DNA from: a phage
Sequence record: PZ154895.1
Strand: one strand, 5' to 3'
Length of the DNA: 64,000 nucleotides
The notes under the pieces are model-generated. The model saw nothing but the letters and a program-made list of their open reading frames with translations. It searched no databases and had not been told where the DNA came from. The translations under genes were made by a program, and so were the position numbers. Shown one piece after another: positions 15,800 to 64,000 of this stretch. The stretch's first letter is position 1, and every line of letters starts with the position of its first letter.

Positions 15800-15820
15800 G
15801 GGACCTCCGGGTCCCTTTTT
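15800..15820 (+). terminator. intrinsic terminator GGGACC-TCCG-GGTCCC-TTTTT
   Basis: Directly after gene 43. Confidence 0.8.
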
Positions 15821-15903
15821 CATACAAGTAATATAAATCTATACTTAGGAAAAATAGATGATTCTAGGTCCTGTAAATTCATTAAAAATTTTTTCACAAA
15901 ACT

Positions 15904-15933
15904 GTTTACATCCCCGTTCTTCCATGGTACTAT
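15904..15933 (+). promoter_or_regulatory. T4-type early promoter cassette
   Basis: GTTTAC 15904-15909, 18 nt, TGGTACTAT; near-identical copy at 63326-63366. Confidence 0.6.
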
Positions 15934-15967
15934 ACAACTATCAACTGATATGGATTTGGAGAATAAA

Positions 15968-60769: not shown

Positions 60770-61085
60770 TATTCGTCCGGTCGATGAGACCGGTCTTTCA
60801 GAAAAAGAACTTTCAATTAAGAAAGAAAAGGATGAAATAGCAAAACTTCTTGACCGTCAAGAAAATGGATTTATTATTGAAAAAATGGTAGAAGAATTTG
60901 GAATGAGTTATCTTGAAGCTACAACAGCATTCTTGGAAGAAAATTCTATTCCTGAAACTCAATTTGCTAAATTTATTCCTTCGGGTATAATTGAAAAAAT
61001 TCAGTCAGAAGCTATCGACGAAAATCTTTTACGTCCTTCTGTTGTTCGTTGTGAAAAAACTAATACATTAGATTTTCTACTATGA
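60747..61085 (+). CDS. 33: gp33 late transcription co-activator
   Basis: 112 aa from MTQFSLNDIRPVDETGLSEKEL...; track start trimmed. Confidence 0.88.
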   Translation: MTQFSLNDIRPVDETGLSEKELSIKKEKDEIAKLLDRQENGFIIEKMVEEFGMSYLEATTAFLEENSIPETQFAKFIPSGIIEKIQSEAIDENLLRPSVVRCEKTNTLDFLL

Positions 61086-61735
61086 TTAAACTCCGCATGC
61101 CTGCTGGTGGTGAAAGATACATTGATGGTAAATCAGTTTATAAATTATACTTAATGATAAAACAACATATGAATGGAAAGTATGATGTAATTAAGTATAA
61201 TTGGTGCATGCGGGTGTCTGATGCCGCTTATCAAAAGCGAATGGATAAGTATTTTTTCCAGAAGTTATCAGAAAAATATAAATTAAAGGAACTTGCTTTA
61301 ATCTTTATAAGCAATCTTGTTGCTAACCAAGATGCTTGGATTGGTGACATCTCTGACGCTGATGCACTTGTGTTTTATCGTGAATATATCGGACGCTTAA
61401 AGCAAATTAAATTTAAGTTTGAAGAAGATATTCGCAACATTTATTATTTTAGTAAAAAAGTTGAAGTTTCTGCTTTTAAAGAAATTTTTGAATATAATCC
61501 AAAAGTTCAATCAAGTTATATTTTTAAACTACTTCAATCGAATATAATTTCGTTTGAGACGTTTATCTTGCTTGATTCGTTTTTAAATATAATTGATAAA
61601 CATGATGAACAGACTGATAATTTAGTCTGGAATAATTATTCTATAAAGTTAAAAGCTTATAGAAAAATTTTAAATATTGATTCACAGAAAGCTAAAAGTG
61701 TTTTCATTGAAACTGTGAAATCCTGTAAGTATTAA
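61082..61735 (+). CDS. 59: gp59 helicase loader
   Basis: 217 aa; MIKLRMPAGGERYIDGKSVYKLYLMIKQHMNGKYDVIKYNW... Confidence 0.93.
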   Translation: MIKLRMPAGGERYIDGKSVYKLYLMIKQHMNGKYDVIKYNWCMRVSDAAYQKRMDKYFFQKLSEKYKLKELALIFISNLVANQDAWIGDISDADALVFYREYIGRLKQIKFKFEEDIRNIYYFSKKVEVSAFKEIFEYNPKVQSSYIFKLLQSNIISFETFILLDSFLNIIDKHDEQTDNLVWNNYSIKLKAYRKILNIDSQKAKSVFIETVKSCKY

Positions 61736-61736
61736 T

Positions 61737-62369
61737 ATGAATATAGTATATTGGTTTACATTTGAAGACCGTGTCAAAAATAAGACTCCGCCGTACTACT
61801 ATATCGGCAGTAAATTAAATTGCTCATTTGAGAATGGAATAATATATGACTCTTCCGGAAAGGAATACTGGAGCTCATGTAAACAAAAAAGATTTTTGAA
61901 TGCGGTAATGCTTCAAAAACCGAGCGTTAAAATAATTCAAATTGATGATGACTTGGATGTTATTGAAGCAGAACGAAAATACCAACTTGAAGTAAATGCC
62001 AGAGATAATCCAGACTATTTCAATCTGGTATATGCTGGTGGTGGATTTGGTGTGAGTGGTGAAACTCATCCAGCCAAAGACCCGGAAGTTAGAGAGCATA
62101 TGAGATTGGCTAATTATATGAACCGTGACGATTTTAGACCTTGGAAAACATCACGAGCTAATATAGAGTCTTGGAAATTATCTCATATTGCTTACGAGAA
62201 TTATGTGTTATTATTATCCTCTAATCTGTACGGTAAAACTCCTGGATGGCGAAGAGTTAGAGGTAATATAAATATAACTGATGCAACTGCTAAATCGATG
62301 GTAAAGTATTTCAACTCAGGTTGGATACCTCTCGAAGACCCAGAGTATTGCGAATTATGCCAGCTATGA
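61737..62369 (+). CDS. Seg-like (degenerate GIY-YIG) freestanding endonuclease at the segG position
   Basis: 210 aa between 59 and 32; IVYWF...PPYYYIGSK and EAERKYQLEVNARDNPDYFN blocks; paralogue of ORF 4997-5620. Confidence 0.5.
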   Translation: MNIVYWFTFEDRVKNKTPPYYYIGSKLNCSFENGIIYDSSGKEYWSSCKQKRFLNAVMLQKPSVKIIQIDDDLDVIEAERKYQLEVNARDNPDYFNLVYAGGGFGVSGETHPAKDPEVREHMRLANYMNRDDFRPWKTSRANIESWKLSHIAYENYVLLLSSNLYGKTPGWRRVRGNINITDATAKSMVKYFNSGWIPLEDPEYCELCQL

Positions 62370-62424
62370 GGTAAAGTGTCATAGCACCAACTGTTAATTA
62401 AATTAAATTAAAAAGGAAATAAAA

Positions 62425-63381
62425 ATGTTTAAACGTAAATCTACTGCTGAACTCGCTGCACAAATGGCTAAACTGGCTGGAAATAAAGGTGGTTTTTCTT
62501 CTGAAGATAAAGGCGAGTGGAAACTGAAACTCGATAATGCGGGTAACGGTCAAGCAGTAATTCGTTTTCTTCCGTCTAAAAATGATGAACAAGCACCATT
62601 CGCACTTCTTGTAAATCACGGTTTCAAGAAAAATGGTAAATGGTATATTGAAACATGCTCATCTACCTACGGTGATTACGATTCTTGCCCAGTATGTCAG
62701 TACATCAGTAAAAATGATTTGTACAACACTGACAATAAAGAGTACAGTCTTGTTAAACGTAAAACTTCTTACTGGGCTAACATTCTTGTTGTAAAAGACC
62801 CGGCTGCTCCAGAAAATGAAGGTAAAGTATTTAAATACCGTTTTGGTAAGAAAATCTGGGATAAAATCAATGCAATGATTGCAGTTGATGTTGAAATGGG
62901 TGAAACTCCGGTTGATGTAACTTGTCCGTGGGAAGGTGCTAACTTTGTACTGAAAGTTAAACAAGTTTCTGGTTTTAGTAACTACGACGAATCTAAATTC
63001 CTGAATCAATCTGCGATTCCAAACATTGATGATGAATCTTTCCAGAAAGAACTGTTCGAACAAATGGTTGACCTTTCTGAAATGACTTCTAAAGATAAAT
63101 TCAAATCGTTTGAAGAACTGAGCACTAAGTTCAGTCAAGTTATGGGAACTGCTGCTATGGGTGGTGCCGCAGCAACTGCCGCTAAGAAAGCCGATAAAGT
63201 TGCTGATGATTTGGATGCATTCAATGTTGATGACTTCAAAACAAAAACTGAAGATGATTTTATGAGCTCAAGCTCTGGCAGTTCATCTAGTGCTGATGAC
63301 ACGGACCTGGATGACCTTTTGAATGGCTGTTTACATCCTTGTCCTTCCGTGGTACTATACAACTATCGGCAATACTGCTGA
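62425..63381 (+). CDS. 32: gp32 single-stranded DNA binding protein with non-canonical C-terminal tail
   Basis: 318 aa; matches T4 gp32 through ...[18 protein letters not shown], then 18 extra residues [18 protein letters not shown] read through an early-promoter cassette. Confidence 0.88.
63329..63358 (+). promoter_or_regulatory. early promoter cassette embedded in the 3' end of the gene 32 ORF
   Basis: GTTTAC 63329-63334, 18 nt, TGGTACTATAC; near-identical to cassette at 15901-15945. Confidence 0.55.
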
Positions 63382-63401
63382 TGATTAAAGAGGAAAATAA
63401 T

Positions 63402-63629
63402 ATGGCTAAAGTTGATATTGACATCGTTGATTTTGAATATATTGAAGAAATTATTCGTAATCGTTATCCTGAACTTAGTATCACAAGCGTGCAAGATTCT
63501 AAGTTTTGGAGTATTCAAATCGTTATTAAAGGTCCTCTTGAAGACCTCACCCTCTTTATGGCTAATGAATATTGTGATGGCATGGATTCTGAAGACGCAG
63601 AATTTTACATGGGACTGATTGAACAATAA
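63402..63629 (+). CDS. hypothetical acidic protein, 75 aa
   Basis: GAGGAAAATAATATG leader; track ORF 63339 trimmed. Confidence 0.45.
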
Positions 63630-63665
63630 TTATCAAGGGGCTATTACAGCCCCGTTAAAATGAGG

Positions 63666-64000
63666 AAAATCAAAAATGGAAATCGGCAAAAAATATGAGT
63701 TAAATCCACACCGTATTAAATCTTTCATTGATATTAGTTCATCAAATGCTAGTATGGTCGGCATCATTCAAGAAAATGGTGGTTGGTTTGAAGTTAAATC
63801 AATATCAAGTTTAGATGGCTTTGATTATGTAACCGAAATCATTTGTGCTAACGGTGAAATCTATAATGATGATGGTATGGGTGATGATTATTTTGAACTT
63901 AGTGAAGAAGAGTTTTATTGTTTCCGCGAATATAAAGAACCGACTTCTGAAGAGGATGAAGTTAAAGACAAGGTTTCTGGCGTAACAAAAATTCACTGCA
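63666..64000 (+). CDS. hypothetical protein, 5' part (runs off window end)
   Basis: GAGGAAA RBS, ATG 63666, open to window end. Confidence 0.45.

Follow-up and report, generated by a model that had tools for sequence, protein, structure and literature searches.

An apparent 77-bp deletion that carries gene 32 into the frd.3 early promoter of a Tequatrovirus segment

The stretch of phage DNA analysed here, which we call the window, comprises 64,000 nucleotides of sequence record PZ154895.1. As a whole it is a new mosaic, with BYEP01 as its best match (96% over 20 kb). The locus of interest contains the genes 59, segG, 32, frd.3 and frd.2 in the order usual for T4, which is also that of the annotations of EC128, fPS-2 and T2, and its features are collected in Table 1 together with a related unit located elsewhere in the window. 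The gene lying between 59 and 32 corresponds in position to a gene annotated as 'homing endonuclease' in EC128; its ORF has no match in Pfam at E<=0.001, and a protein identical to it is encoded on three Logan contigs. The A/T-rich leader upstream of gene 32 is what we take to be the translational operator of that gene, as established for T4. A search of Rfam over 61-64 kb returned no match. Predicted Frd.3 proteins are often given an upstream start that brings them to 82-99 aa (homologues P0122-P0140; 63339-63629 in the window), and these starts fall inside the promoter or the leader, so that the lengths of Frd.3 in the databases are inconsistent.

Table 1. Features of the gene 32/frd.3 locus and of the sister unit downstream of gene 43, in window coordinates
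Feature	Position	Strand	Evidence and remarks
Sister terminator and early-promoter unit downstream of gene 43	15800..15942	+	Sequence, pattern match; intact
Gene 59 (helicase loader)	61082..61735	+	Pfam T4_Gp59_N, T4_Gp59_C
SegG-like homing-endonuclease gene, 210 aa, between genes 59 and 32	61737..62369	+	EC128 annotation
Gene 32 5' leader, presumed translational operator region, A/T-rich	62370..62424	+	Sequence; same as in relatives
Gene 32 (gp32, ssDNA-binding protein), variant ORF	62425..63381	+	ORF list; 318 aa; coordinates include the stop codon
18 non-native codons, from the frd.3 promoter region	63325..63378	+	Translation
Apparent deletion junction AATG/GCTG	63325..63326	+	Alignments; 77 bp of relatives missing here
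frd.3 early promoter core	63329..63358	+	-35 GTTTAC 63329-34, TGn 63350-52, -10 TACTAT 63353-58
Tandem stops TGA TGA closing the extended gp32 ORF	63379..63384	+	Sequence; second TGA (63382-63384) directly adjoins the first; frd.3 ATG 20 nt further on
frd.3 Shine-Dalgarno region AAGAGGAAA	63387..63395	+	Sequence; conserved in all aligned relatives
frd.3, 75 aa	63402..63629	+	Pfam PF05798 Phage_FRD3, E=3.5e-39, full length

The product of gene 32 is 99% identical to a 302-aa gp32 cluster (P0003) that is common in T2-like Tequatroviruses, and its DNA-binding core matches the full profile of Pfam PF08804 (E=2.1e-66, residues 40-240). The translation begins MFKRKST..., so that the basic KRKST motif of N-terminal cooperativity is present, as are the zinc ligands His64, Cys77, Cys87 and Cys90 (...NHGFKK...ETCSS...DSCPVCQ...; the numbering is shifted by +1 in the 302-aa type). 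The variant keeps intact the N-terminal motif for cooperativity, the core that binds DNA, the helix bound by Dda (residues 248-270) and the acidic stretch. In the translation, residues 1-300 are native, through Asn300 (...DLDDLLN), and residues 301-318 are read-through. The original prediction for this DNA held that the frame follows T4 gp32 and then runs on for 18 residues to the TGA at 63379-63381, which the ORF and the sequence bear out, and it gave the T4 protein as ending in ...DDLLNDL, which is indeed the C-terminal end of T4 gp32 in nr (P0005) and of all intact relatives. It also described the acidic C-terminus as replaced. That description is right about the new tail and goes too far for the rest, since the acidic stretch is kept and the only native residues lost are the last two, Asp-Leu. 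The tail codons cross the promoter from GTTTAC (63329-34) to TGg TACTAT (63350-58) ACAACTATC, and the 18 residues that they encode have a computed net charge of about +0.8 and include three Cys. For the whole variant protein we computed a mass of 35.4 kDa and a charge of -9.4, compared with 33.5 kDa and -11.4 for the restored wild type.

Two substitutions in the native part of the protein were also observed. Residue 82 (62665-62670), within the zinc-binding subdomain, is Tyr (CSSTHGDYD to CSSTYGDYD), and 117 of the 118 homologue representatives have His there; Leu61 stands where others have Ile. We considered H82Y as a compensatory change and rejected it, because Logan contig L011 has Tyr82 together with a normal C-terminal end. 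The same contig shares Leu61 as well, so both substitutions are unlinked to the deletion.

The origin of the extension is suggested by alignments (A1-A3) with EC128, fPS-2, T2, LH2 and EP01. At the junction the window reads TTGAATG/GCTGTTTAC (here and below the slash marks the breakpoint), where the relatives carry 76-78 more bases, 77 in the case of EC128. The distance between common anchors is 301 nt in the intact arrangement and 224 nt in the window. The missing segment consists of GAC CTT TAA (Asp, Leu, stop), a 22-nt spacer, the terminator GGGGACC-CTAGA-GGTCCCC-T6 and the A/T-rich sequence ATTTCAAAAATTTTTTCACAAA. Its right breakpoint lies 3 nt upstream of the -35 hexamer, and its left breakpoint lies in unique gene 32 coding sequence without homology to any cassette; inspection of the sequence at 63325/63326 revealed no microhomology. 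Relative to every close relative, therefore, the cause of the gp32 extension appears to be a single clean deletion of 77 bp, as judged from the alignments, and the event was to all appearances homology-independent and confined to one terminator-promoter unit. The earlier suggestion that a small deletion took the native stop agrees with this gap.

A consensus scan of 62300-63700 found no terminator on the + strand of the window, and the same scan found the EC128 terminator (L001 1757-1775). The pattern of the gene 32 terminator is absent anywhere in the window, and the sole hairpin after frd.3 (63634-63655) has no T run. The promoter was retained: the promoter scan reported TTTACA-17-TACTAT with TG, with an equivalent site in intact EC128, and all elements of an early-promoter core (-35 GTTTAC, a spacer of 17-18 nt, TGn, -10 TAnnnT) are found at 63329-63358. 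T4 early promoters belong to the UP/-35/TGn/-10 class (Hinton review, PMC2988021). In the window no UP-like A/T-rich element is found at -40 to -60, where gene 32 coding sequence now lies. The annotation of fPS-2 gives a terminator at this locus, followed by a 'predicted early promoter'. The promoter that is translated in the window is thus the early promoter belonging to frd.3, which has not moved and is found at the same place in all relatives.

The unit downstream of gene 43 has the same layout, with a hairpin GGGACCTCCGGGTCCC-T5, an A/T-rich stretch and then GTTTAC...TGGTACTATACAACTATC. A 39-nt pattern that we derived from the sequence of the 63329 region, with four positions set to N, has exactly two matches in the window, at 15904-15942 and 63329-63367, while none would be expected (100 shuffles). 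The original prediction had pointed to the resemblance between the extra codons and the cassette at 15901-15945, and the two segments (63326-63370 at the gene 32 locus) are identical at 38 of 45 positions. With two highly similar promoter modules in the window, it might be supposed that the junction arose by homologous recombination between repeated terminator/early-promoter cassettes (PeSLs), for example with the 15.9-kb copy, and PeSLs have been reported to mediate indels in T4-like phages (PMC2839356, PMC4122927). We consider this highly improbable. The genes flanking the junction (59, segG and 32 on one side, frd.3 and frd.2 on the other) are in standard order; the promoter that was kept is the local variant ATCCTTGTCCTTCCGTGG, identical to that of LH2 at this locus and unlike the 15.9-kb copy; and the left breakpoint, as described above, lies outside any cassette homology. 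We did not find the combination of breakpoints in two homologous cassettes with a change in gene content that marks cassette recombination of the PeSL type. The original prediction had offered recombination at a promoter cassette as one cause, and this proposal fails, because the promoter is resident in all relatives, the deletion lies within one unit and there is no microhomology. On the sequence comparison, the 15.9-kb copy is a sister promoter with no visible part in the deletion.

Two further causes were considered and rejected. The first is a break induced by SegG: deletions also occur in alleles without segG, and Liu et al. 2003 reportedly placed the SegG cut towards the 5' end of gene 32, at a distance of 332 bp from the point where segG is inserted. 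The second is simple slippage on folded single-stranded DNA. When the intact region was folded as ssDNA, a long-range stem formed between gene 32 (GGAC/GGATG) and the promoter spacer (CATCC/GTCC), which fits the junction of phage EO1 (see below), and a second stem paired CTTTTGAA with TTCACAAAG close to the breakpoints of the window. The geometry does not account for the deletions, and the repeat is missing from alleles that have the EP01-type spacer. A concatenated query of predicted slippage products (GGACC onto the terminator arm, a deltaPR201-type product and a 12-nt GACCTTT repeat deletion) gave mostly gapped matches to intact records, which swamped it.

We searched for the same junction in several collections. 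An 80-nt query across the junction was not matched as a single block by any of 499 related phage records, and none of them matches the junction 54-mer. Exact searches with a 26-mer spanning the junction were empty in IMG/VR, GTDB genomes and JGI metagenomes, and a look-up of the exact 318-aa variant protein found it not to be on record. The gapped pattern GATGACACGGACC-N(0-30)-GGTACTATACAAC returned nothing from IMG/VR or from the metagenomes; only one contig of IMG/VR contains even the intact motif, so that this result says little. A query specific for the fusion retrieved plain Frd.3 proteins only. A short C-terminal protein query against a word index retrieved one chimeric 102-aa ENA protein and missed even normal gp32, so that we give its negative outcome no weight. 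The ENA protein (P0001, from a contig of 613 bp) consists of a membrane-protein-like N-terminal part and gp32 residues about 245-286, and its source is probably a chimeric metagenome contig. The original prediction had allowed that reference T-even phages might carry the extension as their normal allele, and none carries it. The nearest relative found is Logan contig L011, which is 98.97% identical over 1749 nt; its gp32 has one difference in the first 300 residues and ends normally, with ...NDL-TAA and the terminator. Because the junction is absent elsewhere and this closest sequence has the normal end, we infer that the deletion is recent and lies on a terminal branch.

That the junction is unique across all collections searched would also be expected if the deletion were not in the phage, that is, if it had arisen through faulty assembly or consensus calling, through a minority variant that the assembler had fixed, or through editing after sequencing. 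The locus contains a strong G+C-rich hairpin within A/T-rich DNA, and in at least one deposited relative, BYEP02 (L018, about 1250-1410), a suspicious 77-bp tandem duplication accompanies a frameshifted gene 32, so that faulty assemblies of this locus do occur. On inspection, however, the breakpoints share no k-mer or repeat that could mislead an assembler, and a search of the rest of the window did not turn up the missing 77 bp. At 15.8 kb the window has an undamaged hairpin terminator, and large genes run without interruption, for example as ORFs of 898, 725 and 605 aa. Comparable deletions, moreover, are found in 8 independent phages from different laboratories, and one junction is common to four diverged phages. 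An artefact of any of these kinds seems to us quite improbable; a sequencing or assembly error is possible, and is not the explanation we favour.

The duplication in BYEP02 (TGATGACACGGACC...GGGGACCCTAGAGGT) comprises the end of gene 32 and most of the terminator, the gene 32 ORF of that record is 176 aa long, and the duplication may be an assembly problem.

The comparable deletions came to light when the 499 records were queried with an intact 251-nt reference: in 480 records at least 80% of the reference is covered, which leaves 19 deviant ones. Of these 19 we characterised about 13, and other deletions at the gene 32/frd.3 junction were found in 13 GenBank records, from at least 8 phages and with six junction types. 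Class A (CrRp10, phiC600P9, vB_Eco-B1.1 and GEP001) has the junction ACGGACC/CCAAAGCATACTG and encodes an in-frame gp32-Frd.3 fusion of 392 aa, and IME537 (ACGGACC/CATTTTTTTTTTTCAC) encodes a gp32-Frd.3 fusion of 402 aa. The gp32 product is 310 aa long in EO1 (ACGGACCT/CCTTGTCC), 311 aa in TB004 (ACGGACC/ACCAAAGC) and 301 aa in ZN18 (ACGGACC/TATTCC), where it ends in ...DDTDLFQKIFS. In ZCEC15 (GATGATTT/TGCCAC) it is 277 aa long and without the whole acidic region, and it ends in the tail frame of the window, ...VLYNYRQYC. For phiC600P9, the records MZ681930.1 and MT630408.1 apparently differ at the base beside the junction (GGACCT and GGACCC, giving Leu and Pro), judging from which junction 54-mer each record matched.

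In all six junction types the terminator and the native C-terminal end of gp32 are gone. Each allele has also lost some or the whole of the early promoter of frd.3, and in each the gp32 frame continues into the promoter region; the fusion alleles lack the whole LDDLLNDL tip and the terminator, and class A lacks the -35 region as well. None of the alleles found removes the terminator alone. The appended peptides occupy all three reading frames, so that what the alleles have in common is a loss and not a gain. Five of the six types have their left breakpoint right after ACGGACC(T), at gene 32 codons 293-295 (L005-L008, L014, L015, L016, L019); their right breakpoints differ, with little or no microhomology, and the GGACC of the shared left breakpoint recurs as the left arm of the stem in the terminator. 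The shared breakpoint points to a mutational hotspot. In the window the left breakpoint is 19-20 nt downstream of this site, which marks its deletion as a separate kind of event. Gene 32 and frd.3 do not form a continuous frame in the window: the ORF stops at TGA 63379-81, and the frame of frd.3 is the +1 alternative.

The fused coding sequences of class A diverge by 1.4-6.1% among the four phages, which were isolated in China, Poland and France. Class A is an allele present in natural populations and did not result from a single error. The gp32-Frd.3 fusion ORFs (locus positions 397-1575 in class A, L005-L008, and 450-1658 in IME537, L014) are present in five deposited phages, two of them in RefSeq, and are annotated merely as single-strand DNA-binding protein. 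The paper on CrRp10 does not mention the fusion, and in our literature search we found no paper that names frd.3 together with gene 32. Judged by its sequence, the window allele looks like a real, new variant in a small and previously unremarked class of natural lesions of the gene 32 tip and terminator.

Among 118 gp32 cluster representatives, which span 58-99% identity and several host genera, 114 have the motif (D/E/G)L(D/N)xLLxx(L/M/F) at the C-terminal end or within 1-2 residues of it, and we therefore regard LDxLLxxL as a conserved terminal motif. The other four comprise two construct-like sequences, one truncated protein and a gp32-Frd.3 fusion. The window departs from this pattern, in that DLDDLLN is followed by 18 foreign residues. 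Structural work places the contacts of Dda at gp32 residues 248-270 and not at the tip, and residues 273-301, which are invisible in the Dda complex, have been proposed to regulate ssDNA binding (PMC11551737). Lesions at the tip have measured effects: gp32 1-295 and the protein of T4 strain deltaPR201, which lacks residues 292-296, have about 3-fold higher affinity for ssDNA and 1.5-2-fold higher affinity for dsDNA and associate 4-6-fold faster, far short of the effect of a full deletion of the C-domain, and both proteins, when purified, are intermediate in their DNA binding (PMC5892887).

In the window protein, LDDLLNDL-COOH would be shortened to LDDLLN and covered by an uncharged, Cys-containing 18-mer, with the loss of one acidic residue. 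The function of the tip would probably be weakened in part, by a change no larger than that in gp32 1-295 or deltaPR201, and the phage should stay viable. We consider the effect compatible with viability because LDDLLN is kept, a single Asp is lost and the added 18-mer is nearly neutral. That lesions of this kind can be tolerated is indicated by the 13 records with other deletions, by the divergence of class A, by the existence of the T4 deltaPR201 strain, by the intermediate DNA binding of the purified deltaPR201 and 1-295 proteins and by the location of the Dda site outside the tip. Burying the tip could nevertheless be more harmful than we assume, given its conservation in 114 of 118 representatives down to 58% identity, and three added Cys beside a zinc-binding protein could have unforeseen effects.

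It is also conceivable that the deletion was selected and not merely tolerated, the loss of the tip, the terminator or both being of help on the isolation host. One possible route is tuning of ssDNA affinity; another is evasion of a defence system by which gp32 is sensed or poisoned. The window allele would then belong to a large number of repeated escapes. This account overlaps the one we prefer and differs from it only on selection. In at least seven independent junctions, the window included, the terminator has gone together with the native end of gp32; no junction found lacks the terminator alone, and the loss is common to alleles that append peptides in all three frames or fuse Frd.3. The class A allele has persisted and diverged. 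In addition, gp32 is a known trigger or target of the host system AbpAB (PMC10732053) and of P2 Tin (Mosig et al. 1997, cited in PMC8987985). On the other hand, tsP7, the allele that escapes AbpAB, carries a missense change (PMC10732053). The left breakpoint after ACGGACC(T), common to five of the six junction types in the databases, points to a mutational hotspot and not to selection, and the isolation hosts of the deletion phages are diverse. The window, for its part, retains most of the motif (LDDLLN), and the motif is strongly conserved overall. We judge selection of the deletion to be somewhat unlikely.

A broader form of this idea takes the gene 32/frd.3 junction as a recurrent target, where deletions with breakpoints focused after ACGGACC strip a near-universal tip together with the terminator, and where the loss is conditionally advantageous, for example as an escape from a host or prophage system that acts via the tip. 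We offer this tentatively and think it unlikely. If tip loss were advantageous, the persistence of gp32-Frd.3 fusions in four diverged phages would hint at a link between Frd.3 and the replication machinery.

The explanation that we consider probable is that this Tequatrovirus segment has undergone a single, recent, homology-independent deletion of 77 bp, one of several independent deletions at this junction, with the following effects. The deletion would have taken the last two codons and the TAA of gene 32, the spacer, the rho-independent terminator and the A/T-rich upstream element, and the gp32 frame now runs through the -35/TGn/-10 core for 18 codons to TGA-TGA. Without the terminator, middle and late transcripts of gene 32 would extend into frd.3, frd.2, frd.1 and frd, and frd.3 is the first gene that such read-through meets. 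The frd.3 early promoter, deprived of its UP contacts, would probably be weaker. Ribosomes that finish gp32 would stop just before the Shine-Dalgarno of frd.3 and may couple translation of Frd.3 to that of the abundant gp32. The extended ORF ends 5 nt before the Shine-Dalgarno and 20 nt before the ATG, a spacing that favours such coupling.

The lesion concerns a textbook ssDNA-binding protein, whose C-terminal domain is held to organise the replication and recombination machinery of T4. The window allele, which buries the tip, and the at least six alleles that delete the tip or fuse Frd.3 to the protein form a natural allelic series that could be used to study the role of the last eight residues of gp32 in vivo. 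Their recurrence exposes a fragile site within the core region of T4-like genomes, and annotation pipelines call the gp32-Frd.3 fusion ORFs plain gp32 with the fusion unnoted. If the deletions are selected, they would reveal an unrecognised host pressure on the tip of an SSB; if they are neutral, they are a modest note on natural variation.

Several known systems can be compared with the window allele. The tip of bacterial SSB (SSB-Ct, ...DDDIPF) is a short, conserved acidic and hydrophobic C-terminal motif joined to the core by a flexible linker. By analogy, the gp32 tip LDxLLxxL shows the same kind of conservation, though there is no homology between the two. Among the natural alleles, all junctions differ from that of the window; five types lose the whole of LDDLLNDL, whereas the window keeps LDDLLN and the -35 hexamer, and ZCEC15 shares with the window the tail ending ...VLYNYRQYC. 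The deltaPR201 and 1-295 proteins (Hurley et al. 1993; Pant et al. 2018, PMC5892887) resemble the window protein in having a small lesion at the extreme acidic C-terminal end and an untouched N-domain and core, and the purified proteins keep cooperative ssDNA binding. Their lesions, however, are in-frame and leave the stop codon, the terminator and the downstream promoter intact, whereas the window protein has lost only two residues and gained 18 foreign ones, and the deletion has taken transcription signals as well. The cassettes known as PeSLs (Arbiol et al. 2010, PMC2839356; Comeau et al. 2014, PMC4122927) resemble the locus in that a stem-loop terminator is directly followed by a conserved early promoter, and in that the window contains a second, near-identical promoter module. 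PeSL events, however, exchange one cassette with another so that entire genes are swapped or deleted, whereas the deletion in the window falls within a single cassette and extends into a core gene.
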